Assembly (NCBI RefSeq): GCF_000734015.1 | Contig: NZ_CP008796.1 | Coordinates: 1,080,001-1,112,000, forward strand | From: Thermodesulfobacterium commune DSM 2178 | GTDB lineage: Bacteria > Desulfobacterota > Thermodesulfobacteria > Thermodesulfobacteriales > Thermodesulfobacteriaceae | DNA: 32,000 nucleotides | Reading direction: 5' to 3' | Part shown: positions 1,891-28,367 of the stretch, in pieces | Numbering within the stretch: the first letter of the stretch is position 1 | How the letters are laid out: every line of letters starts with the position of its first letter | The notes under the pieces: generated by a model | Database searches by the model: none | The model's input: the letters and a program-made list of their open reading frames with translations, nothing else | Told to the model about the DNA's origin: nothing | Position numbers and translations under genes: made by a program

Positions 1891-3834
1891 ATGCTTAAAA
1901 TAGACATAAAACAGGGAAGTCTTACTGAAGAACAGATAAAATGGTTTGAAAAAGCTTTTAGAAGATGTGCTAGAAGGATTATTCTTTCTACTACTTTAGC
2001 AGGATGTGGGCATCCAGGTGGGTCTCTTTCTTCTTTAAGTTTACTTTTGGTAGTCTATTCTTTAGCTAAGGTTAACCCGCAAAATCCTAGGGCATTAGAA
2101 AGAGATAGAATCTTAATTAGCCATGGGCATATAAGTCCTGGGGTTTATAGTGTGCTTTGCGAATACGGCTTCTTTCCTGAAGAACCCTTTTTGATGGAAT
2201 TCAGAAGGGCTGGTTCTGCTTTCGCAGGGCATGTAGAACAATCAGTACCAGGGGTAGAATGGAACACAGGTAACCTTGGTCAAGGCCTTTCAGCAGCCTG
2301 TGGTATGGCTCAAGCGTTAAAACTTAAAAATCTTTCTAATCTTGTGTTTTGTTTTATGGGAGATGGAGAACAACAAAAGGGTCAAGTAATCGAGGCCAGA
2401 AGATGGGCGGTTAAATTTAAACTTGACAATCTTATCACCTTAATAGACTATAATCAGTTACAAATAGGGGGCAAAATTTCTGAAGTAATGCCGCAAGATT
2501 TGAAAGCAGAAATAGAAGCCACAAAATGGAATGTATTAGAGATCGACGGACACGACTTTCAACAGATTTTTCAAGCACTCAAGGTTGCCATCGAAAAAAA
2601 AGTATCTAATCCTGAACATCCTACAGCTATCATAGCCCACACGGTGATGGGCAAAGGAATTTCTTTTATGGAAAATGATCCTAAGTGGCATGGGATGGCT
2701 CTCCCAGAAGATCTAGCTAAGAAGGCTTTAGAAGAGTTAGGGTTTGACCCTGGTGAACTTGATGTTTTAAAAGAAAAAAGAAAAACCTGGAACGTCAGTT
2801 TTCCACACCAAAATTATGATCCTCTACCAATAGAACTAAAAATCCCAGCTCCTACGATTTATCCACCTGAGGTTAATACAGATTGTAGAAGTGCATATGG
2901 TAAAACATTGTTAAATCTTGCTAAAGAAAACAATCCTCCAACAGGAACTCCCAAAATTTTGGGTTTAACCTGTGACCTTGAAGGTTCGGTAAAAATGACA
3001 GATTTTAAAAAATGGTCTCCTCAGGCTTTTTTTGAATCAGGAATACAAGAACATCATACAGCTTCTGTAGCAGGCGCCCTCTCTAAAGAAGGATTTTCAG
3101 TATTTTTCTCTACCTTTGGAGTGTTTGCGATAGATGAAGTCTACAACCAACTAAGAATAAACAGTATCAATCGTACAGCGTTAAAGGTGGTAGCTACTCA
3201 CCTTGGAGCTGACGTAGGAGAAGATGGGCCTACTCATCAGTGTATAGATTATATAGGTCTTTTGTTAAATCTTTATGATTTTGAAATTTACATTACTGCT
3301 GACCCCAACCAAACAGACCATATCATAAGATATATAGCAGACAAACCTCGTAACATCTTCGTAGGAATGGGGCGGTCTAAACTGCCGGTGGTTACCAAGG
3401 AAGATGGAAGTCCTTACTTTGACGAAAATTATACCTTTATTCCTGGCAAGGCTGATTGGATAAGACAAGGTGATAAAGGAGTTATTATTACCTACGGTAC
3501 GATGATACCTTATGCTTTAAAAGCTTGGGAAATTCTAAATTCTGAAGGAATTAAAGTAAGCCTTTTAAATGTAGCCTCTATAAGGCCTTTTCCAGAAAAA
3601 GACTTATTAAAAGCCTCTGAATTAAAAAATCTTATCATCGTAGAGGATCATCTGGTAGAAACAGGTCTTGGTACAAGGATAGCCAGTTTTTTTGGGCTCA
3701 AACAAATTAAAGTAAATCTTAAACTATTAGGACATAAAACTATTTGCTCCTCTGGTAAACCTTCGGAACTTTTTAAACAAGCAGGGTTAGACCCAGAAAG
3801 TATTGCTCATACCATGAAACAAATGTTAAAATAA
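1891..3834 (+). CDS. tkt: Transketolase (single 647-aa polypeptide)
   Basis: ThDP motifs GHPGGSLSS and GDGEQQKGQ...NLITLIDYN; the C-terminal pyrimidine-binding/transketolase-C part has GIQEHHTASVAGAL and GEDGPTHQCIDY. Confidence 0.85.
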   Translation: MLKIDIKQGSLTEEQIKWFEKAFRRCARRIILSTTLAGCGHPGGSLSSLSLLLVVYSLAKVNPQNPRALERDRILISHGHISPGVYSVLCEYGFFPEEPFLMEFRRAGSAFAGHVEQSVPGVEWNTGNLGQGLSAACGMAQALKLKNLSNLVFCFMGDGEQQKGQVIEARRWAVKFKLDNLITLIDYNQLQIGGKISEVMPQDLKAEIEATKWNVLEIDGHDFQQIFQALKVAIEKKVSNPEHPTAIIAHTVMGKGISFMENDPKWHGMALPEDLAKKALEELGFDPGELDVLKEKRKTWNVSFPHQNYDPLPIELKIPAPTIYPPEVNTDCRSAYGKTLLNLAKENNPPTGTPKILGLTCDLEGSVKMTDFKKWSPQAFFESGIQEHHTASVAGALSKEGFSVFFSTFGVFAIDEVYNQLRINSINRTALKVVATHLGADVGEDGPTHQCIDYIGLLLNLYDFEIYITADPNQTDHIIRYIADKPRNIFVGMGRSKLPVVTKEDGSPYFDENYTFIPGKADWIRQGDKGVIITYGTMIPYALKAWEILNSEGIKVSLLNVASIRPFPEKDLLKASELKNLIIVEDHLVETGLGTRIASFFGLKQIKVNLKLLGHKTICSSGKPSELFKQAGLDPESIAHTMKQMLK

Positions 3835-4577
3835 TGAATTCCCAGATTAAAGAAGTAGAGGAGAAAAAACTAAGTCTAATTGAACACTTATTAGAACTTA
3901 GAGCTTGTCTAATAAAGGCATTTATTGGTTGGGTTATTGCTTCTGTAATTGCTTATTTTTTAGCAGACCACATCATAGATTTATTATTAAAACCTTTAAT
4001 GAAAGCTATACCTCAACAGAATTATGTATTTTTCCGTACCTTTCCTGAAGTTTTTGCTTCTTATCTTAAACTTTCTATAATAACAGGTTTTATTTTTGGT
4101 AGTCCTTATATTTTTTATCAACTGTGGTCCTTTATCGCCCCTGGACTTTATCCTCATGAACAAAAATGGGTAAAAACTGCAGTATTTTTAACCTCTTTTG
4201 CGTTTATTTTAGGAGACCTTTTGGCTTATTTCTTTTTTTTACCGTTTATTCTTAAATTCCTTTATTCTTTTGGGGAAAAATTTCTGGTTTTTAAACCTTT
4301 TTTAAAAGACTATATAAGTTTTTGTCTTCGTTTTTTTTTAATCATAGGGGCGGTGTTTCAAATACCATCTTTTATGGTTTTACTTAATCGGTTAGAAATA
4401 GTAAACTACGAAGGATTTAAAAAATTTAGACCTTATGCAATCCTTCTCGCCTTTTTTATAAGCGCTATACTAACTGGTGGAGGAGATCCTTTTAACCAAA
4501 TTATTTTAGCCATACCCTTGACACTATTATATGAAACAGGTATAATTTTAATCAGGTTATTTAAAACACTTAAATAA
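3834..4577 (+). CDS. tatC: Twin-arginine translocase subunit TatC
   Basis: N-terminus LSLIEHLLELRACLIKA... followed by 6 hydrophobic segments; ATG overlaps the tkt TAA by 1 nt; tatA follows. Confidence 0.85.
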   Translation: MNSQIKEVEEKKLSLIEHLLELRACLIKAFIGWVIASVIAYFLADHIIDLLLKPLMKAIPQQNYVFFRTFPEVFASYLKLSIITGFIFGSPYIFYQLWSFIAPGLYPHEQKWVKTAVFLTSFAFILGDLLAYFFFLPFILKFLYSFGEKFLVFKPFLKDYISFCLRFFLIIGAVFQIPSFMVLLNRLEIVNYEGFKKFRPYAILLAFFISAILTGGGDPFNQIILAIPLTLLYETGIILIRLFKTLK

Positions 4578-4594
4578 AAAGGAGGCTTTCTGAT

Positions 4595-5241: not shown

Positions 5242-6498
5242 TTACTTAAAAAGTTCTACTTTATAATTTTCCGGAGCATTAAATACTTCATCTACATGTT
5301 TGGTGAACTTAAAGTGCATAGAAGTTCTGTAGGTAGTATAAGCAAGTCTGTAATCGTCAATACACTTTTCAGTAAATGGAATACCGGTTAATTCAAAGAA
5401 TCTTTCCCAACCAATTCTGTTAATCCAAGTACCAATCCTTTCGTACTTATTAGCATGCTGAGAATAGATCTCAATAATCTTTTTAATCCATTTAACAGTG
5501 GTTGGCCAACGAGGAGGTTCATTAGGAATATAAGGTATTACTACTCTTGAAAATTCAGGAGGAGTAATCCTGTTAGAAACCTTTCCACCGACCACAATAG
5601 CAATACCATCACCTTCTCCGTCAGCAATAGGTAAAGCTGGACACATGGTATAACAGTTACCACAGAACATACAACGATCTACATTTATTCTAACTGTCTT
5701 TTTCTTCTTACCATCTACTTCAGCAGTAGCAGGTTTGATAGCACCTAAAGGACAGGAAGCTATAACCAATGGTATTTCACAAACATGTTCTAACCTTTCG
5801 TCTTCAACCAAAGGTGGTTTTCTGTGAATACCAACCAAGGCAAGGTCAGAACAATGCACAGCACCACACATGTTAAGACAACAGGCAAGGGCTAACTTAG
5901 TCTTTGCAGGAAGTTTATGAGATCCAAAGTATTCAAATAGTTCATCCATGATAGCCTTAACTATACCGGAAGCGTCGATAGCAGGAGTATGACAGTGGAT
6001 CCATCCCTGGGTATGGACTATGTTGCTAATACCTGCCCCTGTACCACCGATAGGAAACTTATAAGAACCATTAGGATGTTTCCTGTTTTTCAAGTCTTCT
6101 ATAAGAGCCTTTAAAGTTTCTTCATCAGTTACATGAAATTCTACGTTATTACGGGTAGTCCAGCGTACATAACCGCCACAATATTTATCTGCGATCTCAC
6201 AAATTTCTCTGATGTAGTCTGTAGTTTCCAAACGAGGGGTACCACATCTTACCACATAAACTACATCACCTGTTTCAGACTTATACTTTAAAACCCCAGG
6301 TTGGATTATCTCATGAGAAACCCATTTACCATAGTTTTTCTGAATAACAGGTGGCATAAACTGCCAGAAATAAGGAGGTCCTATATCAGTAATTCTGTTT
6401 TCCATGGGTTTTTCAGGGTTATACAACTTTTCTGCCAAAGTTGGATCATAGGGCTGTGTATAAATCGGGTCTAACTCTTTAAATTTTTCAATTCCCAT
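5242..6498 (-). CDS. dsrB: Dissimilatory sulfite reductase beta subunit
   Basis: [17 protein letters not shown]-terminal signature; sirohaem/[4Fe-4S] cysteines ([24 protein letters not shown]); ferredoxin-like insert CPLGAI...[12 protein letters not shown]; SD AAGGAGGG before the ATG. Confidence 0.9.
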
Positions 6499-6556: not shown

Positions 6557-7855
6557 TTAAGCAGGGTGGCGTTTTCTAAATTCAGCCACGTCTCTGGTCC
6601 AACCACCCTCAACCTCTTCTTCCTTCCAGAAGATGTATGGGTTGTCACGAGGTACTCTTACATGCTGAGGAATAGGTGTAAGTCCCATAACCTCGGTGAT
6701 AAACTTGTTCAAACCAATTCTCTGGATAAGTTCACCGATACGTTCACGGTTCTTTCCATTTTCCATCCAATAATCCCAGGCCTTATAGATAAAATCTTTA
6801 AGTTCATCATAAGGTGGTTCCACCTTCATAAAAGGAACAATAAGGGTAGAAAGCTGAGCACCTTCTAAGATCGGGGCTTTAGCTCCGATCAATATAGCGA
6901 TACCGGTATCTTGACCAGGTCTTAAAGCCTCTGGCATAACAGCTATACAGTGCATACACCTGTTGCATTCACTGTTGTTGATATAAAGCTTCTGCTCGTT
7001 TTCATCCCAGTACATACACTTGGTAGGACAAAGGTCAATAACTTCCTTCTTAATATCAAAAGGACCCCAGTCTCTGTCAGAAAAAGCACCTGCATTAGGT
7101 TTAAGCTCACCCCTTACATAGGCTCTTACTGCTTCTTGATCTATTCTAATTTCATCTCTCCAAGTACCTATGAAAGACATGTCAGCTCTTGCTACAGCAG
7201 CCACACAATCTAAGGGACATCCAGAAAATTTAAACTTAAACTTATATGGAAATGCAGGACGGTGCAATTCATCTTGGAAAGCCATGGTTAACTCATAGTC
7301 TAATTCTTGAACATCTATCAAAGCCCACTCACAACGAGACTTACCCACGCAGCAAGCAGGGCTTCTTAAGTTAGAACCAGAACCACCAAGATCCCAATGA
7401 AGCTGATGAGTTAAGTCAAAAAAGATAGGCTCAAGCTGGTCAGTAACCGTACCTAAAAGGATGATATCACCGGTAGAACCATGAAAGTTAACAATACCAC
7501 TACCCCTATGATCCCACATATCACAGAGTTTCCTTAAAGCTGAAGTATGATACCACTTTCCTGCGGTATGGTGCACACGGATAGTATGGAAAGCCCAGAT
7601 AGCAGGGAATCTTTCCTGCTGGTCAGAATAACGCCCAATAACTCCACCACCATAACCAAACACACCAACAATACCACCGTGCTTCCAATGGGTCTCTTTG
7701 TGGGTATAGGAAAGCTCCATTTGACCCATTATGTCAAAACAGGCTTGTTTCTTGTGCTTCTCACCATAAGAATAAATGTCATCAACAAAACTTGGCCAAG
7801 GACCAGTCTTAAGCTGGTCTATTTTCGGTGTATCATGTTTTTTCACCTCGCCCAT
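6557..7855 (-). CDS. dsrA: Dissimilatory sulfite reductase alpha subunit
   Basis: TPKIDQLKTGPWPSFV, ETHWKHGGIVGVFGYGGGVIGRY and HGSTGDIILLGT are classic DsrA blocks; ferredoxin domain CNRCMHCI; SD AGGGAGGG before the ATG. Confidence 0.9.
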   Translation of the reverse strand: MGEVKKHDTPKIDQLKTGPWPSFVDDIYSYGEKHKKQACFDIMGQMELSYTHKETHWKHGGIVGVFGYGGGVIGRYSDQQERFPAIWAFHTIRVHHTAGKWYHTSALRKLCDMWDHRGSGIVNFHGSTGDIILLGTVTDQLEPIFFDLTHQLHWDLGGSGSNLRSPACCVGKSRCEWALIDVQELDYELTMAFQDELHRPAFPYKFKFKFSGCPLDCVAAVARADMSFIGTWRDEIRIDQEAVRAYVRGELKPNAGAFSDRDWGPFDIKKEVIDLCPTKCMYWDENEQKLYINNSECNRCMHCIAVMPEALRPGQDTGIAILIGAKAPILEGAQLSTLIVPFMKVEPPYDELKDFIYKAWDYWMENGKNRERIGELIQRIGLNKFITEVMGLTPIPQHVRVPRDNPYIFWKEEEVEGGWTRDVAEFRKRHPA

Positions 7856-8060: not shown

Positions 8061-8738
8061 ATGGAAATTTTTGTTATAGAAAAGGTAACCAAAGTTTATA
8101 ACCCCTATTTTAAAGTGCTGGATGAAGTATCTTTTATCGTAAAAGAAGGAGATTTTTTGATCTTAACCGGACCGACTGGAGCAGGTAAAACCACCCTTCT
8201 AAAGTTACTTTACCGAGAAGAAAAACCTACTGACGGAGAAATATTTTACAAAAACTTCCCTTACTCTAAGCTCAATAAACGACATTTTTTACATCTAAGA
8301 CGCAATTGGGGGATCATTTTTCAAGATTACAAACTAATACCAGACTTAACGGTTTTTGAAAATATAAAAATCTCTTTAATCTTAAGTCAAAAAAAAGTAC
8401 CTAAAATAAAATTTCACATCTTAAACTATCTTGAAAGATTTAACCTTGCTGCCAAGGCCTTCAAAAAAGTAAAAGAACTTTCAGGAGGTGAACAACAGAA
8501 AGTAGGTATCGTAAGAGCTATCATTAGAGACCCTGAATTGTTAATAGCTGATGAACCTACAGGAAATCTTGATCCTGAAAGCATAAGGGAAATTATTAAG
8601 ATATTTCAAGAATATCAACAAGCAGGAAAAACGGTAATTCTTGCTACCCATGACCCAGTTATCCTACAACTTAACGCGGGAAAAATTCTTAGATTAGAAC
8701 AAGGAAGGTTGGTAGGAAATGTTCAAACTTCTTGCTAA
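8061..8738 (+). CDS. ftsE: Cell-division ABC ATPase FtsE
   Basis: Walker A GPTGAGKTT, signature LSGGEQQKV, Walker B LLIADEPT; followed by an overlapping FtsX-like permease. ATG 8061 (MEIFVIEKVTKVY) is preferred to the tracked TTG 8019. Confidence 0.75.
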   Translation: MEIFVIEKVTKVYNPYFKVLDEVSFIVKEGDFLILTGPTGAGKTTLLKLLYREEKPTDGEIFYKNFPYSKLNKRHFLHLRRNWGIIFQDYKLIPDLTVFENIKISLILSQKKVPKIKFHILNYLERFNLAAKAFKKVKELSGGEQQKVGIVRAIIRDPELLIADEPTGNLDPESIREIIKIFQEYQQAGKTVILATHDPVILQLNAGKILRLEQGRLVGNVQTSC

Positions 8739-9579
8739 GTTAGAGATTAAAAAGGGTTTACTTTATTATCTTTTTTTTATCCTATTTTTCTTTTTTTGGA
8801 ACTTTTTTTCTTTAGCCCTTATTTATGCTTATGGAGTTTTATTTACCTTAGAAAAACACTGGAAAGATCAAATAACCTTAACCCTCTTTTATTATCCTAA
8901 AGACCAAGAGCAGTTAGAACTTTTTATTAAAGGACTGCAAAACAGCTTTTCTTCTTTCACAGAAAAAATTGAAGTAGTTACTCCAGAAATGGTCCTAAAC
9001 CAAGCTCAAAAAAACCTTCCCAAAGAAATAACCCAAATTTTTACTGAAGAAGAGCTCAAGGAAAACTTACCTTTTCTCATCAAAATTTATCCTAAATCTT
9101 TGGGAAGTTATATAGAACTTACAGAGCGTTTAAAACTAATCGCCGCCTCAACTCCTGCTTTAGAGCTTCAAAACCCTAAATATTTTAAGTTTCTAAAACT
9201 AAGCTTTTTTCTCAAATCAGGGATAATCGGGTTTTGGTTTAGCTGGATAATAGTTTATCTCGGGGCTATTTTTTTTATAAATAACTTATTAAACAACCTG
9301 CTTTATCAACAATATAAACTGATCCTTCTTTTAGGAGGTAATCCTTTTTATCTAAAATTCATCAGGTTGGGTTTTTTGGTTTCTCTCATAACCTTAGGAT
9401 TCTTTAGTTCAGGGGCTACCTTTTACTTAGCAGTAAATTCTTTAACAAGTATCATAAACTTTCCTCTTTTAGATATTTTCTGGGTAAATCCCTGGTATTC
9501 TTTGGTGTATTTTATCCTTTTGGTAGTATTAATACCTTTTTTAAGTGTGTGGATAAGTTTTTGGGGTTATGAAATATAG
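8719..9579 (+). CDS. ftsX: FtsX-like cell-division permease
   Basis: Has FtsX topology: TM1, a ~115-aa extracytoplasmic loop, then 3 C-terminal TMs. It overlaps ftsE by 20 nt. Confidence 0.65.
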   Translation: MFKLLAKLEIKKGLLYYLFFILFFFFWNFFSLALIYAYGVLFTLEKHWKDQITLTLFYYPKDQEQLELFIKGLQNSFSSFTEKIEVVTPEMVLNQAQKNLPKEITQIFTEEELKENLPFLIKIYPKSLGSYIELTERLKLIAASTPALELQNPKYFKFLKLSFFLKSGIIGFWFSWIIVYLGAIFFINNLLNNLLYQQYKLILLLGGNPFYLKFIRLGFLVSLITLGFFSSGATFYLAVNSLTSIINFPLLDIFWVNPWYSLVYFILLVVLIPFLSVWISFWGYEI

Positions 9580-10195
9580 AAAAATCTTAACCCTCTTAGG
9601 GTGCCTTATTCTAATTTTCTCAAAAAATAATGTTTTATGTCTTCCTACTCAAGACTTAAAATTAAAGGATATAGAAAGAAGATTAACAGACATAGAACAA
9701 ACTAAAAAAGAGATTTTGAGAGAATATCTAAAACTCTTTATCAGAAACCATCATATTTCTTATTTAAAGGATGAATATCCTTTAAACAGGTTTTTAGAAA
9801 AAACCTTACTCAAAAAAATAATCCAACTAAACCAAGAAAGGTTAAGATTAGAAACTAAAAAAGCAGAGCTTATCAACATGTATTTGTTTAACAAAAAAAT
9901 TATTTCCCAGGTTATAAATCCTGTTTCTGGAGAGGCTATTAACCCAGGAGAGTATAGTTTTAAACTAACCCCTCCTGTTTTTATTAGAGCTCCCATTTCT
10001 GGAATGATAACCAACATAAAATACTTGTCAGAAGGGATTATGGTTAAGGTAGAAAATGAAAAATGCAGTGTGTCTATGTTTCCCTTAAGTAGCATAAGGA
10101 TAGACTTGGGAGAAAAGGTAGTGATGAAAGAAATCCTCGGAGAGGTCAAAAATAACAACTTTCTTAGGGCAAAGATAAAATGTAGTTCTGAATAA
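9569..10195 (+). CDS. Secreted coiled-coil protein with a histidine-free LytM/M23-like C-terminal domain (EnvC-like)
   Basis: Signal peptide MKYRKILTLLGCLILIF; central K/E/L-rich coiled-coil; C-terminus APISGMITNI...GIMVKVENEKCSVSMFPLSSIRIDLGEKVVMKEILGEV follows the M23 fold pattern but has no His residues; overlaps ftsX by 11 nt. Confidence 0.4.
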   Translation: MKYRKILTLLGCLILIFSKNNVLCLPTQDLKLKDIERRLTDIEQTKKEILREYLKLFIRNHHISYLKDEYPLNRFLEKTLLKKIIQLNQERLRLETKKAELINMYLFNKKIISQVINPVSGEAINPGEYSFKLTPPVFIRAPISGMITNIKYLSEGIMVKVENEKCSVSMFPLSSIRIDLGEKVVMKEILGEVKNNNFLRAKIKCSSE

Positions 10196-14775: not shown

Positions 14776-16017
14776 ATGCCTGATTGTCTTCCATTTTATG
14801 GGTGGAGATATAATCCTGAAAAAGTAAAAATCGAAGAAGTGGTTGCCCCTCCTTACGATGTGGTTGGCGAGGAAGAAAAAGCTTTTTATCAGAAAAAAAG
14901 TCCTTATAACATCTTTCATCTGGAGCTTCCTGAAACCTACCAAAAAGCCAAACACCTTTTGGAAGAGTGGATAAGGTCACAAATCCTTGTAAAAGAACCT
15001 AAACCTTGTCTCTATTTTTATGAACTATCCTTTATGAGAGAACAGAAAACCCTTTCCCGAAAAGGTTGGATTCTATTGGTAAAGCTACATCACTTTGAGG
15101 AAGGGATAGTTTTACCCCATGAGAAGGTTTTTCCAAAGGTAACAGATGATCGGTTTGAATTGCTTAAGACTACCGGGTTTCAGTTTAGTCAGATTTTTGG
15201 GTTGTATGAAGACCCGGACCTTCTTACCATTTCTTATAGTCCCAAAAATCTACTTTATGAAGTAACCCTTGACCAACAAACCCATCACCTTTATCAAGTT
15301 TCTGAGGTGGACATAATAAAAGAAGTGACTGACTATCTTAAACATCAAAAAATATACATAGCAGATGGACACCACAGATACACTACTGCCTTGAGATATA
15401 AAGAATACATGGAAAATAAGTTAGGCACAACCCCACCAAGGGATTATCATTACATAGCCATGTATGTTTGCCCTATAGAAGAGCCAAACCTACTTATGCT
15501 TCCTACTCATAGAATCTATCGTTTACCAAACCCTGAAGATTTAATTCAAGCCTTAAAAAATTGGGCAGAAAAAGTTTACACCACAGAGCCTATTAATTTT
15601 TCTCAGAATTTTTTTAAAATAAAAGAAAGGGATTTTGGTATTTGCTTTAAAAATAAAGTGATGATTTTCAGGATAAAACAAGAAGTGTATGAGCGTTTCC
15701 AACAGAAAGATCCGGTGCTTTCAAAACTAACCCTTTACAACTTTTTGTCCCTGATGGAACAAGCTTTTCAGATAAAAGAAGAAAGCTTAAAGGAACAAAA
15801 TCAGGTTGAATTTATCTCTGAGGTAAGAGAGGTTTTTAACCACGTCAAAGATCAAGAAATCGGAGTAATTTTCCCTGAGCTTTCTCCCTTAATCTTAAAA
15901 GAGGTTGCATTGCAAGGGAAAAGAATGCCTCATAAAAGCACGTTTTTTTATCCTAAAATCCTTACAGGGTTGGTTTTAAATGAAGTAAGAGGAAAACCTC
16001 TGGACTTTAAGTTATGA
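14776..16017 (+). CDS. DUF1015 family protein
   Basis: PFYGWRYNPEKV...VVAPPYDVVGEEE...SPYNIFHLELP and IADGHHRY match the DUF1015 (COG4198) pattern. Confidence 0.75.
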   Translation: MPDCLPFYGWRYNPEKVKIEEVVAPPYDVVGEEEKAFYQKKSPYNIFHLELPETYQKAKHLLEEWIRSQILVKEPKPCLYFYELSFMREQKTLSRKGWILLVKLHHFEEGIVLPHEKVFPKVTDDRFELLKTTGFQFSQIFGLYEDPDLLTISYSPKNLLYEVTLDQQTHHLYQVSEVDIIKEVTDYLKHQKIYIADGHHRYTTALRYKEYMENKLGTTPPRDYHYIAMYVCPIEEPNLLMLPTHRIYRLPNPEDLIQALKNWAEKVYTTEPINFSQNFFKIKERDFGICFKNKVMIFRIKQEVYERFQQKDPVLSKLTLYNFLSLMEQAFQIKEESLKEQNQVEFISEVREVFNHVKDQEIGVIFPELSPLILKEVALQGKRMPHKSTFFYPKILTGLVLNEVRGKPLDFKL

Positions 16018-16532
16018 AGGAGAGTTTAGCCTATTTTAACCACTGGCTTTCCTTTTACTACGAAAAAAAGGATTTATTTTTAAAAGACCCTTTTATTCAG
16101 GAAAAACTCGAATTATTAAAAAAAGCCATAGAAAAGAGTCGTCAGGCATTTATAGAAAAAGGGTCTTTTGCTTTTTGCAGTGCTTGTGCAAACTCAGGAG
16201 AGAAGTGTTGTAAAGCTGGGTTAGAATGGAAACTAAGTCCTGCTGAGTTTTTGATAAATCTTCTGCTTGCAGAAACCTATAGTTTACCCCTTGCTTTTAA
16301 TACTTCTCGAAAGGAAGACTGTCTCTTCTTAGGAGAAAAAGGGTGTAGCCTTATCCTTACCCCTATTTTTTGTAGAAACTTCTTCTGTGATAAACTGGTC
16401 AAACACTTAGGTCATGCTAACCTAACCTACATCCAGCAAGCGATGGAAGAGGAGGCTACCTTAGGTTTTATTGTAGCTAACTATATAACCACTAAATTGT
16501 TACAAAAGGAGGGAACTAAACATGGAGCTTAA
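16014..16532 (+). CDS. Cysteine-cluster protein (YkgJ/CxxC...CC-like putative Fe-S or Zn protein)
   Basis: FCSACANSGEKCCKAG and CLFLGEKGCSL...FCRNFFCD cysteine clusters; ATGA overlap with the DUF1015 gene. Confidence 0.45.
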   Translation: MKESLAYFNHWLSFYYEKKDLFLKDPFIQEKLELLKKAIEKSRQAFIEKGSFAFCSACANSGEKCCKAGLEWKLSPAEFLINLLLAETYSLPLAFNTSRKEDCLFLGEKGCSLILTPIFCRNFFCDKLVKHLGHANLTYIQQAMEEEATLGFIVANYITTKLLQKEGTKHGA

Positions 16533-21940: not shown

Positions 21941-23269
21941 TTGGAAGTAGATTTTTTATTTATTAATCCTTGGATATATGACTTTTCTGCCTATGATTTC
22001 TGGCTTAAACCTTATGGGTTACTGTATATAGGGGGTAAGTTAAGAAAGTTAGGATATAAAATTTATTATCTAGACCTGCTTGACCCCTTTGCAGAAGAAC
22101 TACCTAAACTTCCTAAGAGAAGGGACTTTGGCACAGGACATTTTTACAAACAGCCTGTGCCAAAGCCTTATTTTTTTCAAGACGTTCCAAGAAGATTTTA
22201 TCGCTATGGACTTCCTTTCGAAACCTTTAAACATAAAGTATCTCGTCTTAAATTTAAAGCAGTCTTTATTACCACCACCCTTACCTACTGGTATCCTGGG
22301 CTTTTTTGTCTGATAGATTTTTTTGCTAAAAATTATCCTCAAACCCCGATTTACATAGGAGGAATCTACGCCAAACTCTGTAAAGACCACCTCCTACATT
22401 TTTTATCACACTATCCAGACACAAAAACTGTTGTGGTTACCCAAGAAGAGGAAGAATTCCTCGCCGAGGTCCAAAAAGAGTTCCTTCCTTCTGGCCCAGC
22501 TTTTATTCATGACTATCCTGTGTTTGACCTGCAAACCCGAATACCTTATGTAATCATAATGAGCAGTATAGGGTGCCCGTTTAACTGCCCTTACTGTGCC
22601 TCTAAAAGGCTTTATCCTTACTATAAAGAAAGATCTCCTGAAGGGCTTTGGGAGGAAGTAATTTTTTGGCACAAAACCTACGGAGTTAAGGATTTTGCTT
22701 TTTATGACGATGCCTTACTTTTTAATTTTGAAAAAAAATTAAGACCCTTTTTAGAAAAGGTTATCGATTCCAAACTTAACATAAGGTTTCATACCCCTAA
22801 TGCAGTGCATGCAAGGTTTATAGATAAAGAAGTCGCCTTACTTTTAAAACAGGCAGGATTTAAAACCATAAGACTTGGGCTTGAAAGGGTAGAAAATCGG
22901 TTTGACCATAAAGTTACTCTTGAAGAATTTATAGAGGCAGTCTCTTACCTTAAACAGGCAGGATTTACTGCTAAAGAATTAGGGGCCTATGTTCTTTATG
23001 GAATTCCTGAAGAAAACTTTAGAGAAGTAGAAAAAGCCCTATTTTTCCTTGAAAAAATAGGAGTAAGCCCTTATTTAGCAGAGTTTTCACCTATCCCAGG
23101 GACTCCTTTCTTTGAAATGGCTAAAACTTACTCCCGCTATCCCATAGAAGATGACCCTATCTTCCATAACAACTCGGTGTTTCCTGCCTTAAAAAACCCT
23201 GTTTGGGAAGATATCGAAAGGATAAAAAATTTAGCAAGAACCATAAGACATAGGCTATCAACAGTTTAA
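21941..23269 (+). CDS. B12-binding-domain-type radical SAM protein
   Basis: N-terminal FLFINPW...YGLLYIGGKLRKLGY (B12-like Rossmann part) and SSIGCPFNCPYCAS (CxxxCxxC). The TTG start is assumed. Confidence 0.7.
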   Translation: MEVDFLFINPWIYDFSAYDFWLKPYGLLYIGGKLRKLGYKIYYLDLLDPFAEELPKLPKRRDFGTGHFYKQPVPKPYFFQDVPRRFYRYGLPFETFKHKVSRLKFKAVFITTTLTYWYPGLFCLIDFFAKNYPQTPIYIGGIYAKLCKDHLLHFLSHYPDTKTVVVTQEEEEFLAEVQKEFLPSGPAFIHDYPVFDLQTRIPYVIIMSSIGCPFNCPYCASKRLYPYYKERSPEGLWEEVIFWHKTYGVKDFAFYDDALLFNFEKKLRPFLEKVIDSKLNIRFHTPNAVHARFIDKEVALLLKQAGFKTIRLGLERVENRFDHKVTLEEFIEAVSYLKQAGFTAKELGAYVLYGIPEENFREVEKALFFLEKIGVSPYLAEFSPIPGTPFFEMAKTYSRYPIEDDPIFHNNSVFPALKNPVWEDIERIKNLARTIRHRLSTV

Positions 23270-24220: not shown

Positions 24221-25423
24221 ATGCGTAAACTCTCAAAAGAAACTCAAAAACTTTTTTATTTATCTCTCATCTATTTTTTTTCAGGCCTTCCTTTTGGTTT
24301 TTTCTATACCTTTATTCCTGTATTTTTAAGGACAGAAGGAATAAGTTTAGTACACATCGGACTTTTTTCCTTAGCCAGTTTGCCCTGGAGCCTAAGACTT
24401 CTATGGGCTCCTTTGATAGACCGGTATTTTAATAAAACTTTTTGGATGGGCATATCTTTAATAAGCATCGGAATAGTTATCTTATCGTTAGCCTTTATTC
24501 CTCCTCAAGGGATCACCTTTTTCATCTTGCTTATCCTGCTTTGTTTTTTTTCCTCGGTGTTTGATGCCGCTGCCGATGGTTTTGTGGTAGAGTGGATCCC
24601 TTCTGCTACCTTAGGAAAAGCTAATGGTTTGAGGATTGCTGCCTATCGTTTAGCCTTGATTACTTTTGGAGGTGGGTTAGTGGCAGTAAGCCATTACTTG
24701 GGTTTTAAATCGATATTTTATCTAATTTTTCTGGTAAGTTTATCCATAGGGCTATTTTTATTACTCAACCCTTTCCTTAAACACAACCTACCTAAAAAAA
24801 CCTATTCTCTAAAAGACCAGTTTATTCTACCCATTGTTGAGATACTAAAGAGGAAAGGGGTTTTCACCCTTCTTTTGTTTGTCTTTACTTACAAAATAGG
24901 GGATTCTTTGCTTGGGGCGATGGTTTATCCCTTTTGGGTGGACAGAGGTTTTTCTCGGTTAGAAATAGGGTTAGTTGCAGGCTCTATCGGAAGCCTTCTT
25001 ACCATCCTTGGGTCCCTTTTAGGAGGATATCTTTCCAGCAGATGGACGGCCAAAAAATCCTTGCTAACATTAGGCTTATTTCAAGCCTTTTCCAACTTAG
25101 GTTATACCTTTGCCTCTATTTCAGCCCTTCCCAAAGAGACCGTTTATTTAGCCTCTGTAATCGAAAGCTTTACCGGAGGCCTTGGCACAGCAGCCTTTGT
25201 TACCTTTCTTACCAAACTCTGCCAGAAAGAGTTTTCTTCAACCCAGTATGCGGTTTTTTCTACTCTGTTTAGCCTTTCTTTAACCTTATCAAGAAGCTTA
25301 TCAGGGGTTTTAACCACCTATTTAGGGTATACCTTATTTTTTGGTCTAACCTTTCTGGTTTCTCTCCCTGTTTTTCTTCTGATACCTAAGGTTACACAAC
25401 ATCTAAACTCGGAAGGCTCTTAG
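24221..25423 (+). CDS. ampG: MFS transporter, AmpG/muropeptide-permease-like
   Basis: 12 hydrophobic segments; LSLIYFFSGLPFGFF and LRLLWAPLIDRY resemble AmpG family motifs. ATG 24221 is preferred to tracked 24110, which would abut the divergent prmA start. Confidence 0.6.
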   Translation: MRKLSKETQKLFYLSLIYFFSGLPFGFFYTFIPVFLRTEGISLVHIGLFSLASLPWSLRLLWAPLIDRYFNKTFWMGISLISIGIVILSLAFIPPQGITFFILLILLCFFSSVFDAAADGFVVEWIPSATLGKANGLRIAAYRLALITFGGGLVAVSHYLGFKSIFYLIFLVSLSIGLFLLLNPFLKHNLPKKTYSLKDQFILPIVEILKRKGVFTLLLFVFTYKIGDSLLGAMVYPFWVDRGFSRLEIGLVAGSIGSLLTILGSLLGGYLSSRWTAKKSLLTLGLFQAFSNLGYTFASISALPKETVYLASVIESFTGGLGTAAFVTFLTKLCQKEFSSTQYAVFSTLFSLSLTLSRSLSGVLTTYLGYTLFFGLTFLVSLPVFLLIPKVTQHLNSEGS

Positions 25424-25854
25424 AAATTAATTTGAAATTTTTTAGCATAAGGACAAACCCTTTTAGGAGGCCATTTTTTAAAAATCTTATCCTTTTCAGA
25501 ATGGCAGTTTAGACAAAAACCTACCTTTAAAATTTTTACCAGTTCCTCCTGAGTAAAAGGACGAAGATTTGGCCGAGAAAAATTGACCAGCTTAGTTCCG
25601 TTAAGATTAACCATTTGAGAAAGACAAACCCTTGGGGATTTTATAAAAGTTTTTTCTAAGTTTACTACCTCTATTGAATTTTTGGTTTTTACCACTTTTC
25701 CATATCCTAACCCTAAGGTTTTTGTGTTCTGATGACAGCTTTTACAGGAGCGTCCTTGTTTCCCTGTGCTATGAGGGTTAAGTTTAGCAAAGGTAAGACT
25801 TGTTATTTCTTTTTTTACCTCTCCTGTCTCTGAGAGGATGGTGATAAAATCCTG
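25420..25854 (-). CDS. In-frame continuation of the multihaem cytochrome c beyond TGA 25855-25857 (144 codons, 2 CxxCH)
   Basis: Hand translation shows the same frame as ORF 25855..27168 and no stop: QDFITILSETGEVKKEITSLTFAKLNPHSTGKQGRSCKSCHQNTKTLGLGYGK, then the tracked ORF VVKTKNS...CLNCH.... There is no ATG/GTG/TTG before 25695, no SD and no signal peptide. Confidence 0.55.
   Translation of the reverse strand, partial: QDFITILSETGEVKKEITSLTFAKLNPHSTGKQGRSCKSCHQNTKTLGLGYGKVVKTKNSIEVVNLEKTFIKSPRVCLSQMVNLNGTKLVNFSRPNLRPFTQEELVKILKVGFCLNCHSEKDKIFKKWPPKRVCPYAKKFQINF
25818..25837 (-). other. Hairpin 17 nt downstream of the in-frame UGA (candidate SECIS-like element)
   Basis: RNA CCUCUC-AGAGACAG-GAGAGG: 6 Watson-Crick pairs (4 G-C), an 8-nt loop with G at loop position 2. 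It is short and was not scored with any model. Confidence 0.25.
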
Positions 25855-27168
25855 TCAGCCTGGGGTAACGGTAACCACTCTTTGATTATCTTCCACCGCT
25901 AAAGTAGGAAGTGCAAGTCTTCTATAAGATTCATGCTCTATCCAAAGCCCCTTCGTTTCCTTAGCAAGTATTTTGTCAAGATGGGTGTCTCTTGGGTCAT
26001 ATTTGATATGACAGCCGTAACAATCAGGCATATGTTTGGCATGGCAGCTTACACAGGTTAATCGTTTATGATAAGAAAGACTACAAGCTTTAACTGGTTT
26101 TTTGATTAAAACCCTTTTTTCAGAACCTTTACTTTCTAAATAAGCTTGCTTACCTTTTTTATAAAAATTTTTGAGTTTTCTTCCTTTTTTAGTAGTACCA
26201 TCTCCTCCATGACAGGTTTGGCACTCAATTTCTAAAGCCTCATGTAAACTGTAATAAAAATTTCCATCTCCCATCACTTCTTCTTTAGTATGGCAGTCTA
26301 TGCAAGATAACCCTTTTTGGAAATGAATATCAGGAGAAACCCGATCTAACCATCTTCCGTCAACCCAAACTTCATCCCCTATCCCACCTTGCTCATTTTC
26401 ATAAAGTCCTTGATAGGTGAATCCTATCCTCCCACTTCGGTTATGGCACCTTACACAGTTTTCCATCGGAGGATATCTAACCAGTTTAGGATGAACTTTT
26501 CGAGAAGAATTGGGGGTCTCATCTTTCTCTTTTACCGAATGACAGGCGGTACATCCCCCTCCTTTTTCTTTCAAAAAATAGGGAAGTTTTCCCTTTTCTA
26601 ACCAAAGATGACAACTACCACAAAGTTTTCGATAATAGTCTAAACCTAAACTGTTTTTGGTTTTATGATAAACCTCTTGATGATAAAGTTGAGATACACT
26701 CAACTTAGGATATAAAGATAAAACCTCTTTTTCTTCAAAAACTTCAACCACTCTTTTTATCATTCCATGGTTGGTAGCCATAAGAGAATTTTTTACCTTC
26801 GATATCTCCGTAAGATGACATCCTGGTTGTCCACAGGTAAGATTAACATATCTCAGATCTCCAGGGTTTTTTACTATGTTTTTATGGGCCTCTTTAAAAT
26901 CTAAAGTATAAGGATTTCCTAAATGACAGGAAGAACAACCAACGACCTTTTTGTCGTGCACCTTTTCAGGAACTACCTCCTGATGACAAGTAATACATAA
27001 CTCTACTTCACCTGAGGTTAACTTAGCAACCTCCCGTCTATCTTTTTTAGCTTCAGAATAGAACAAACAGAGTAAGATAACTAATCCTAATAAAATCCAA
27101 AATGACTTAGTCTTAGCTAAACGTTTAAGTGTGGGCATCTCTGTAGATGATAAGACTAAAAATAACAT
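25855..27168 (-). CDS. Membrane-anchored/exported multihaem cytochrome c (9 CxxCH + 1 CxxxxCH up to the TGA)
   Basis: Motifs CITCH, CSSCH, CGQPGCH, CGSCH, CTACH, CVRCH, CIDCH, CQTCH, CVSCH, CYGCH. N-terminal anchor KRLAKTKSFWILLGLVILLCLF. Start is either ATG 27168 or ATG 27138; both overlap the cytochrome b gene end. Confidence 0.85.
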   Translation of the reverse strand: MLFLVLSSTEMPTLKRLAKTKSFWILLGLVILLCLFYSEAKKDRREVAKLTSGEVELCITCHQEVVPEKVHDKKVVGCSSCHLGNPYTLDFKEAHKNIVKNPGDLRYVNLTCGQPGCHLTEISKVKNSLMATNHGMIKRVVEVFEEKEVLSLYPKLSVSQLYHQEVYHKTKNSLGLDYYRKLCGSCHLWLEKGKLPYFLKEKGGGCTACHSVKEKDETPNSSRKVHPKLVRYPPMENCVRCHNRSGRIGFTYQGLYENEQGGIGDEVWVDGRWLDRVSPDIHFQKGLSCIDCHTKEEVMGDGNFYYSLHEALEIECQTCHGGDGTTKKGRKLKNFYKKGKQAYLESKGSEKRVLIKKPVKACSLSYHKRLTCVSCHAKHMPDCYGCHIKYDPRDTHLDKILAKETKGLWIEHESYRRLALPTLAVEDNQRVVTVTPG

Positions 27169-27985
27169 AAACTAACAACCACCATATTAAAGCCCCAACT
27201 ATCCAGAGGCTAAACTTTCTTGCAGGCTTAAAACCTAAAAGAACAAGCCAAACAACCGCTAAAAAAAGTAAAAAAAGCACTCCCAAAGGGGGTAAAAACT
27301 TTAAAAGTCCCTGAGCTCCCCAAAAAAACCATGGACCAGTAACTATCGTTTTCCCTTTCTCTGACTCAAGAGGAACATAAAAGATGAGAGGCAAAATCAG
27401 GTTTAGGTAAAGATAAGGGGCATATTTAAGGCTTAAAACCCGTTTAATCGAGGCATGCCAAACAAAAAGCCCTATGGCTAATAAAAAAGAACCATAAATA
27501 TGGGCTAAATAAACTCTATAAAGACCTCCTTTAGAGATTGGGAACAAAAGGTCTCTTAAGACTTCTCCTACATAAGGTATGCTTAAACAAAGATTTTCAG
27601 CTATGGTTCCTGCAAGCTTCCCTACCTCATCAAACCTTATCACATAACCGGTAAAGGTAATAAAAATAAGGACGATAAAGCTTAACACCAAAAACAACCA
27701 GGCAACAAAATTCTTTTTATGATGCCATCCTTTGTAAAGGCTATCTATCAGATGGAAAAAAGTTGAGATTAAAGCAAGTTGAGAAGAAAAGTAGTGAAGA
27801 CTTCTAAAAAACCTGCCAAAAGGCACCGATGACTCTAACCGAATCACACTGTAGAGAGGTTCGGTATAAAAGTAATGATAACTAACCACCATCCCAGATA
27901 AAATAGAGATTATAAGGCTTATCAAACAGAGATTGGCTATAAACAGGTTGATTTTTGAAGAGGTAGAAAAGCTAAAAAACCTCAA
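27125..27985 (-). CDS. Cytochrome b (b6 + subunit-IV-like, 7 TM) of a Rieske/cyt b complex
   Basis: His pairs H64/H78 (13 intervening, RSLHYFSS...FFH) and H162/H177 (14 intervening, LAHIYG...VWH) lie in predicted helices B and D. TGYVIRFDE replaces TGYxLPWxQ, and GPWFFWGAQGLLK aligns to the PEWY Qo region. The only available start is TTG 27985, overlapping the Rieske gene by 14 nt. Confidence 0.75.
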   Translation of the reverse strand: MRFFSFSTSSKINLFIANLCLISLIISILSGMVVSYHYFYTEPLYSVIRLESSVPFGRFFRSLHYFSSQLALISTFFHLIDSLYKGWHHKKNFVAWLFLVLSFIVLIFITFTGYVIRFDEVGKLAGTIAENLCLSIPYVGEVLRDLLFPISKGGLYRVYLAHIYGSFLLAIGLFVWHASIKRVLSLKYAPYLYLNLILPLIFYVPLESEKGKTIVTGPWFFWGAQGLLKFLPPLGVLFLLFLAVVWLVLLGFKPARKFSLWIVGALIWWLLVYVIFSLIIYRDAHT

Positions 27986-28367
27986 CCTCTAAACCCTGAG
28001 AATTAAGTCTGTAGTTGTATGTAGTAAGGTCTTTTTTAGCAGGTCCAGAGAGAAACTTTCCTGAAAGATTAAATTTACTTTGATGACAGGGACAGACGAT
28101 CAGAGCCTCTTCAGGAGAATAGTTAAGCAAACAGCCTAAATGAGGACACTTCCTGGAAAAAACCTTAAAATTAGAGCCTGTTTTCATCACAATAAAGTTT
28201 TCTTTAAATAGTATATCTTTAGCTTTTTCTATCTCCTCAAAAAGAACGATAACCTTTTTAGGTGGGGGAGAAGATAAACTAGTTAGGTTTTTAAAAGCTC
28301 CATAGGTTAAAAAACCCAAAACACCCAAAGAAAAAAGCCTTAAAAAGTTTCGTCTCTTTTTATCCAT
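27972..28367 (-). CDS. Rieske [2Fe-2S] protein, bc-type, Tat-exported, minimal (131 aa)
   Basis: Twin-arginine signal KRRNFLRLFSLGVLGF; box I CPHLGC and box II CPCHQS, including the extra disulfide cysteines typical of bc1/b6f Rieske proteins. Confidence 0.85.
   Translation of the reverse strand: MDKKRRNFLRLFSLGVLGFLTYGAFKNLTSLSSPPPKKVIVLFEEIEKAKDILFKENFIVMKTGSNFKVFSRKCPHLGCLLNYSPEEALIVCPCHQSKFNLSGKFLSGPAKKDLTTYNYRLNSQGLEVEVF

Follow-up and report, generated by a model that had tools for sequence, protein, structure and literature searches.

A 32,000-nucleotide stretch of the genome of Thermodesulfobacterium commune DSM 2178 (contig NZ_CP008796.1, positions 1,080,001 to 1,112,000; hereafter the window, whose own numbering is used throughout) carries on its minus strand a gene for a multihaem c-type cytochrome that is interrupted by a single in-frame TGA. 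The open reading frame (ORF) before the interruption has 437 codons (27168-25855) and stops at the TGA at 25857-25855. The next 159 nt (25854-25696) could pass for an intergenic gap: they lie in the same frame, are free of stops and join a listed ORF, 25695..25420. Read through, the frame runs from 27168 to 25420, 582 codons with a sole TGA at codon 438, and ends in a TAA (25422-25420). The part beyond the TGA (25423..25854) is 144 codons long. At the composition of the window (36.7% G+C) the chance of that many stop-free codons is about 1-3e-5, and the other two frames of the same stretch hold 13 and 14 stops. TGA is a true terminator elsewhere in the window: it ends 3 of 29 long ORFs, and the DUF1015 gene finishes in an ATGA overlap.

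Ten haem motifs precede the TGA, nine of the CxxCH type and one CX4CH (CGQPGCH, invariant in the family). Two more follow it, CKSCH (25746-25732) and CLNCH (25515-25501), bringing the gene total to 12 (11 CxxCH and one CX4CH). The first of these, motif 11, lies 5′ of the only candidate restart codon, GTG 25695. At the N-terminus a signal anchor can be read from the sequence (MPTLKRLAKTKSFWILLGLVILLCLFY, 27058..27138, minus strand), with a basic n-region followed by a hydrophobic helix, and the AlphaFold2 (AF2) model of a homologue with cysteine at the TGA position (P0003) has a single long N-terminal helix over residues 2-34. From this anchor we infer export, which would put the haem domain in the periplasm. 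The secondary structure of the same model indicates that the C-terminal part beyond the UGA is beta-rich. The junction peptide spanning the UGA reads VVTVTPG-X-QDFITILSETGEVK, where X is the UGA-encoded residue. A SECIS-like hairpin (SECIS: selenocysteine insertion sequence) sits at 25818..25837 on the minus strand; its 6-bp stem, CCUCUC/GAGAGG, with an 8-nt loop (AGAGACAG), begins 17 nt past the UGA. The best NCBIfam match of the protein is ExtM (NF040943), at 313.2 bits against an equivalog cutoff of 800, and by this score it is a distant relative of ExtM, not ExtM itself. A preliminary description of this DNA had drawn attention to the lone TGA splitting a 582-codon frame, the 159 nt without a stop, the improbability of 144 open codons, the two further haem motifs (one of them upstream of GTG 25695), the use of TGA as a genuine stop elsewhere and the hairpin; its coordinates and counts all hold. 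It offered selenocysteine (Sec) insertion as one explanation among several. Our conclusion is that the UGA is very probably recoded, most probably as Sec, within a single 12-haem gene. The invariance of a Sec/Cys column among orthologues, the frame conserved downstream of it and a hairpin linked to TGA support that explanation, as set out below.

A search of protein collections yielded 983 homologues in two length groups: one of about 420 aa, from Thermodesulfobacterium and Caldimicrobium, and one of about 570 aa, whose sources include Desulfobulbaceae, Desulfurivibrionaceae and cable bacteria. In alignment A1 each short protein stops at ...(V/I)TPG and each long one goes on as TPG-C-QD; P436 and G437 are invariant, and the Cys of the full-length homologues falls exactly at the TGA column. 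The long homologues align with the 582-residue translation end to end, and tblastn recovers residues 1-582 in the closest locus, that of Thermodesulfobacterium hveragerdense (L001). The codon was then read in 80 orthologous loci taken from species-representative genomes. Of these, 29 have TGA (the window's own TGA is extra) and 51 have TGC or TGT. The TGA loci belong to Thermodesulfobacteriales: T. hveragerdense (94% identical), Caldimicrobium, Thermodesulfatator, Thermosulfurimonas and related metagenome-assembled genomes (MAGs), and the TGC/TGT loci to Desulfobulbales and relatives, plus two Caldimicrobium (L005 and L010). The preliminary description had asked whether orthologues are single ORFs with Cys or TGA at this position, and they are one or the other. 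The column lies in a P-G-[U/C]-Q-D motif that is invariant among the orthologues, and with its neighbours it forms the most conserved stretch of the C-terminal half.

The frame beyond the column is maintained as well. In the 30 TGA genes on contigs long enough, it stays open for 121-153 further codons, and both downstream CxxCH motifs are present in all. Comparison of the window with L001 gives, for first, second and third codon positions, 1/0/11 differences within the 159-nt "intergenic" stretch; everything beyond the TGA has 5/5/21, and the codons ahead of it have 13/15/61. A generic scan of the loci for TGA codons flanked by long open frames returned only this cytochrome gene and antisense artefacts. 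Among deposited records, the named orthologues P0001, P0002, P0012 and P0019 are each a "hypothetical protein" of 403-437 aa; in the alignment P0001, P0002, P0019 and the short homologues without a name all break off after ...PG, where the TGA stands, and the C-terminal 120-150 residues are lost from the records.

The distribution of the two forms suggests that the TGA is old and that it has been exchanged for a Cys codon more than once. In a neighbour-joining tree of 81 genes, the Sec-type sequences fall in one clade, sister to the Cys-type Desulfobulbales. Two Caldimicrobium genes with TGC are nested at separate points within the Sec clade and retain the hairpin: L010 (Cys at L010:2399) is 91% identical to the Sec-type L012, and L005 (Cys at L005:2515) is 81% identical to the Sec-type L035. 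Their separate nesting implies two recent Sec-to-Cys replacements. A further case comes from another branch of the superfamily, where a search of 50%-identity representatives turned up a truncated protein, P0203, which led to a metagenome contig (L083, from Joint Genome Institute metagenome 3300005073; positions 3327-3857). At the same column this gene reads PFVPG-TGA-QVIYTSLDREG, and downstream of the TGA it has a CUUCCC/GGGAAG hairpin and two CxxCH motifs; more than one lineage therefore has Sec at this column. Upstream on that contig, at 304-1266 and 1319-1690, are genes for a rhodanese (a weak ExtH-like match) and a tetratricopeptide repeat protein, and downstream (3858-4586) is a second ExtM-like cytochrome. 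Sec appears to be old in this family: it has been kept across an order, and replacement by Cys has happened at least twice with the hairpin persisting.

The published bacterial SECIS model puts the apical loop at about 16-37 nt from the UGA and a G near the beginning of that loop. A hairpin is found in all Sec-type orthologues, its loop beginning 18-25 nt past the UGA, and is weaker or absent in the Cys-type. The comparison covered +9 to +51 nt after the codon in 30 Sec-type and 51 Cys-type genes. The mean stem is 8.1 bp in the former vs 5.2 bp in the latter (Mann-Whitney p = 2e-10), mean folding energy is -12.0 vs -9.0 kcal/mol, and z against synonymous-codon resampling is about -2 vs about 0 (Mann-Whitney p = 2e-8), p-values that overstate independence, the genes being related. 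The stem sequences differ by clade (CCUCUC/GAGAGG, CCCUUCU/AGAAGGG, CUUUCCC/GGGAAAG). A consensus 7-bp helix with compensatory changes in two pairs is found in the Caldimicrobium group; in the other group, pairing over a specified 8-pair helix reaches 78.9%, drops to 33-62% with the partner slid by 1-3 columns, and includes three compensatory pairs. For the Thermodesulfobacterium/Thermodesulfatator group RNAalifold chose a different, weak helix because the register of the hairpin shifts among subclades. The covariance check on the downstream RNA that the preliminary description had proposed turned up a TGA-linked hairpin with compensatory pairs. An Rfam scan reported tRNA-Leu only. Taken alone, the window's own hairpin (-8.9 kcal/mol at 37 °C; z = -1.7 when synonymous codons are resampled) is not significant, and it gains meaning only because of the orthologue comparison. 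Two loci with TGC at the column, from Desulfobulbaceae and Desulfurivibrionaceae MAGs (L037:11134 and L043:11168), have a perfect 7-bp hairpin, CCCUCCU-GGAUG-AGGAGGG, at the SECIS position; it may have been inherited from a Sec ancestor, or it may come with the LLDEEG codons.

What residue 438 might do can be approached through the wider superfamily, from which 384 representatives were collected at E <= 1e-30 and 141 were aligned with the query. In those 141 the Sec column holds Met in 94 ("PGM") and Cys in 38 ("PGCQ"), and a few are truncated. The residues conserved across the superfamily outside the haem motifs are H71, H95, M130, H226, H282, M299, H367, residue 438 and H466. As a set they look like distal haem ligands, and in some members M130 and M299 give way to His, a swap common among haem ligands. 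The Cys/Sec branch has fixed residues of its own: N101, K181, G249, Q439 and an inserted R417. In the AF2 model of P0003 (mean confidence score, pLDDT, 67) the equivalent Cys sits in a turn between strands 421-427 and 432-436. From this pattern residue 438 would most likely be the distal ligand of one haem or lie directly over it; the ligand or catalytic reading is one that we put forward tentatively. A second position deserves mention beside it. C362 (26083-26085, minus strand) is invariant in the narrow Sec/Cys "QD" subfamily, and its column holds His in 24 of 35 other Cys-type and 27 of 94 Met-type representatives; a second change from His to Cys may have occurred here, at a position resembling that of a haem ligand.

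Two genes that precede the cytochrome c gene on the same strand bear on this proposal. The first of the three-gene cluster encodes a Rieske [2Fe-2S] protein (27972..28367; Pfam PF00355 and NCBIfam Rieske families), and the second a cytochrome b (27125..27985; Pfam PF00033/PF13631, with ExtP as its best NCBIfam match, below cutoff). The order Rieske, cytochrome b, cytochrome c is kept in 15 related loci from Thermodesulfobacterium, Thermodesulfatator, Thermosulfurimonas and their allies. In genes and order the cluster matches a bc-type (Rieske/cytochrome b) quinol oxidoreductase module, in which the c-type cytochrome would be the third subunit. The last 44 nt of the cytochrome b gene (27125-27168) are shared with the annotated start of the cytochrome c gene, or the last 14 nt if the second ATG, at 27138, is the true start, and the Rieske and cytochrome b genes share 14 nt (27972-27985). 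Three overlapping genes fit translational coupling in one operon. The cytochrome b ORF runs on for about 100 residues past the matched N-terminal domain.

On these grounds a mechanism can be proposed. The frame 27168-25420 would be one gene, and its product a periplasmic, 582-residue, 12-haem c-type cytochrome held on an N-terminal membrane anchor. The UGA at 25857-25855 would be decoded as Sec by the standard bacterial route, in which SelB brings Sec-tRNA(Sec) and would here bind the hairpin at 25837-25818; where recoding failed, a 437-residue, 10-haem fragment would be released. Sec438 would stand at the tip of a beta-hairpin (P-G-U-Q-D). The change from Met to Cys or Sec, together with the new polar residues N101, K181, R417 and Q439, may have turned an electron-transfer haem into a catalytic chalcogen site, by analogy with the selenoprotein polysulfide reductase MccSep and with TsdA and SoxAX, and its substrate could be polysulfide, another sulfur compound or selenite. 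The Rieske protein and cytochrome b would tie the site to the menaquinone pool. In its most specific form the proposal makes Sec438 a distal axial ligand or van der Waals contact of a c-type haem, and the catalytic centre of a Rieske/cytochrome b-linked enzyme that would couple the menaquinone pool directly to the redox chemistry of polysulfide, sulfur or selenium in Thermodesulfobacteriales that reduce sulfate or disproportionate sulfur; we regard that as a possibility on the doubtful side.

Several points weigh against the selenocysteine reading or its extensions, beyond the relatedness of the genes in the hairpin comparison. No selA, selB, selD or tRNA-Sec was found within the 32-kb window or the flanks of the related loci: ARAGORN, run on the window and 24 locus flanks, reported no tRNA-Sec (the window has tRNA-Leu only), E. 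coli SelA, SelB and SelD, searched by tblastn in the window and the 80 loci, produced a single match, which is EF-Tu, and NCBIfam scans of the window's genes detected no sel genes. The window's hairpin on its own is not significant against dinucleotide shuffles (z = -0.81), and the host is probably a thermophile, so a 6-bp hairpin would be marginal without SelB. The register of the helix moves by a few nt between subclades, and column-wise covariation is modest as a result. The proposed ligand or catalytic role is argued from alignments; the AF2 model is mediocre, and the PDB searches showed no similar structure. Finally, the Rieske/cytochrome b linkage is missing in Caldimicrobium and Desulfobulbales, where the gene stands alone among housekeeping genes. 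In favour of the machinery, selC* genes are reported in isolate genomes of Thermodesulfobacteria, with complete selABCD in all selC*-bearing genomes (PMC5389517). Thermosulfurimonas dismutans, which carries the TGA form of the ExtM-like cytochrome gene (L020), is listed with a Sec-type MccSep (PMC13510729).

Recoding need not mean selenium. The UGA might be read as Cys, through a selC*-type tRNA(Cys) with a UCA anticodon and SelB, or as Trp or Cys by near-cognate tRNAs, giving a 12-haem protein without selenium. The comparative evidence shows recoding and is silent on the amino acid inserted, and selC* tRNA(Cys) occurs in isolates of Thermodesulfobacteria, some selC* having an opal anticodon (PMC7609411, PMC5389517). 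However, opal selC* with a dedicated cysteinyl-tRNA synthetase (CysRS*) has been described in a subgroup of Desulfobacterales, not in Thermodesulfobacteria (PMC5389517), and a TGC codon would serve for Cys without any recoding system, a change that two Caldimicrobium lineages have made. That TGA and hairpin have been retained across an order-level radiation points to a Sec-specific benefit, and we consider insertion of another amino acid improbable.

Another possibility is that both products are functional: a 10-haem form made by termination and a 12-haem form made by Sec insertion, with selenium supply setting the ratio. Sec insertion in bacteria competes with release factor 2, which predicts some truncated product, and the N-terminal 437 residues hold ten complete haem motifs and the signal anchor. 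Yet none of the 80 loci has a homologue that terminates at the column with a stop other than TGA, and no Cys-type lineage lacks the C-terminal part, evidence against the 10-haem form being selected by itself; the concentration of conservation at and around the column, noted above, also speaks against it. Two selected products are, in our estimate, an unlikely outcome. That the TGA is a genuine stop, with the downstream frame a decaying remnant of a nonsense mutation or the product of a base-call error (an option that the preliminary description had left standing), is very improbable: TGA does terminate other genes in the window and the orthologue P0001 is deposited at 437 aa, but the same TGA recurs in 29 other species-level genomes, which excludes a base-call error, and in the L083 metagenome lineage, with the downstream frame intact and both haem motifs conserved, a remnant is unlikely because the post-TGA substitutions are biased to third codon positions, and CKSCH lies upstream of any possible restart codon. 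Sec insertion into a single 12-haem protein stays the preferred account.

The remaining surroundings of the gene say something of its host. Genes flanking the three-gene cluster encode an isochorismatase-family protein, RuvA, an AmpG-like major facilitator superfamily transporter and PrmA, and the cytochrome is 94-95% identical to its counterparts in T. hveragerdense and T. thermophilum. The window also contains the dissimilatory sulfite reductase genes dsrB (5242-6498) and dsrA (6557-7855), both on the minus strand and far above cutoffs, which fits a host that reduces sulfate or sulfite. About 2 kb from the cytochrome operon, a gene for a small rhodanese-domain protein (PF00581; 21416-21937, plus strand) is followed by one for a B12-binding radical SAM protein (21941-23269, plus strand); the pair may have to do with the handling of sulfur or selenium. 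For three ORFs of 172-286 aa at 8719-10195 and 16014-16532 (plus strand), neither NCBIfam nor Pfam gave a match; two of them lie after ftsE and may include a divergent ftsX.

For annotation, the practical consequence is that at least 30 species-level genomes have this gene cut off at an in-frame TGA, and the deposited orthologues examined, 10-haem "hypothetical proteins" of about 420-437 aa, lack the two final haems together with the family's most conserved motif. The family appears to have gone unrecognised as a selenoprotein, though Sec recoding and multihaem selenoproteins are themselves known: no NCBIfam selenoprotein model matches this cytochrome, and neither a 2026 review (PMC13188914) nor a full-text literature search links ExtM-like cytochromes to Sec. 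The review makes no mention of ExtM, and no report of ExtM as a selenoprotein turned up. The cytochrome selenoproteins which that review lists are ExtKL, the GSU2204 family (NF041027) and the octahaem tetrathionate reductase family (TIGR04315). The last two are, like the present one, c-type cytochromes with a predicted Sec, but neither model matches it, and there is no match to the ExtKL model (NF040886) at E <= 0.01. A sequence search of the PDB gave nothing under E = 0.1, and Foldseek against the PDB gave no significant match, the best being the octahaem structure 1sp3 (E = 0.22).

The closest known family by sequence is ExtM (GSU2935), the 12-haem cytochrome of the Geobacter extHIJKLMNOPQS cluster, which also encodes the Rieske protein ExtO and the cytochrome b ExtP (PMC5877670). 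The two proteins are alike in length (about 600 aa, 582 here), in having 12 haem motifs and in having Rieske and cytochrome b genes next to them. They differ in setting: genes for ExtH, I, J, KL, N, Q and S are not present at this locus. None of 20 superfamily representatives scored against the ExtM model reached its cutoff.

A close parallel in gene architecture is MccSep, which is ExtKL (GSU2937-2936) of Geobacter sulfurreducens, a 5-haem selenoprotein polysulfide reductase (PMC13510729); experimental proof of multihaem selenoenzymes is recent and came with MccSep in 2026. The preliminary description had named ExtKL as a precedent. The precedent is real, now characterised as MccSep (PMC13510729), but the present cytochrome is not ExtKL and has no detectable similarity to it; homology to ExtKL/MccSep was considered and rejected, given 12 haems, the P-G-U-Q-D motif and the absence of an NF040886 match. 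The likenesses are nevertheless several. In each case an in-frame UGA has led annotation to split the gene of a periplasmic multihaem c-type cytochrome (periplasmic by prediction in our case), and a SECIS-like hairpin comes soon after the UGA; both families include Cys-type homologues; in both the Sec comes directly after a Gly, in a loop within a C-terminal part rich in beta structure; and both occur in sulfur-metabolising Desulfobacterota, Thermosulfurimonas included. On the other side, MccSep has five haems, a C-terminal Ig-like domain, a D-G-U-P motif and a soluble tetrameric form, whereas this cytochrome has 12 haems, P-G-U-Q-D and a membrane anchor, and the two show no PDB sequence or fold match, with the limit that MccSep entries may be absent from the PDB copies searched. 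In MccSep, Cys239 ligates haem 2 and Sec325 in D-G-U-P is the nucleophile (PMC13510729); a separate Cys thus ligates the haem with Sec beside it, whereas the Sec column here is Met in most relatives. The pair C362 and Sec438 recalls the MccSep pairing of a haem-ligating Cys with a nearby Sec.

More distant parallels concern the haem site itself. The His/Cys haems of TsdA, SoxAX and DsrJ (PMC13510729) have a chalcogen side chain on the distal haem face, S-S chemistry and basic residues nearby; K181 and R417, fixed in the Cys/Sec branch alone, may be the basic residues here. There is no homology, the analogy is mechanistic, and ligation by residue 438 would be the inferred counterpart. A native Sec-ligated cytochrome P450, whose gene is cut at a TGA exactly at the ligand position (bioRxiv 2024, PMC11703216), is a precedent for a natural Sec axial haem ligand, but it has a b-type P450 fold with a proximal Sec and is unrelated to multihaem c-type cytochromes. 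Should the selenocysteine reading be correct, this cytochrome family would be a second family of multihaem selenoenzymes, unrelated to MccSep, with 12 haems and a membrane anchor and linked to Rieske/cytochrome b in several genera, among hosts whose sulfur-disproportionation and sulfur-respiration enzymes are poorly known. Should the haem-site proposal hold too, the protein would join MccSep as another multihaem selenoenzyme without being homologous to it and would offer the first Sec-ligated c-type haem, and Sec would be the natural end of a Met, Cys, Sec series at one haem position within one protein superfamily. With Met, Cys or Sec at one column depending on the branch, this superfamily provides a natural series on the role of selenium at or beside a haem.

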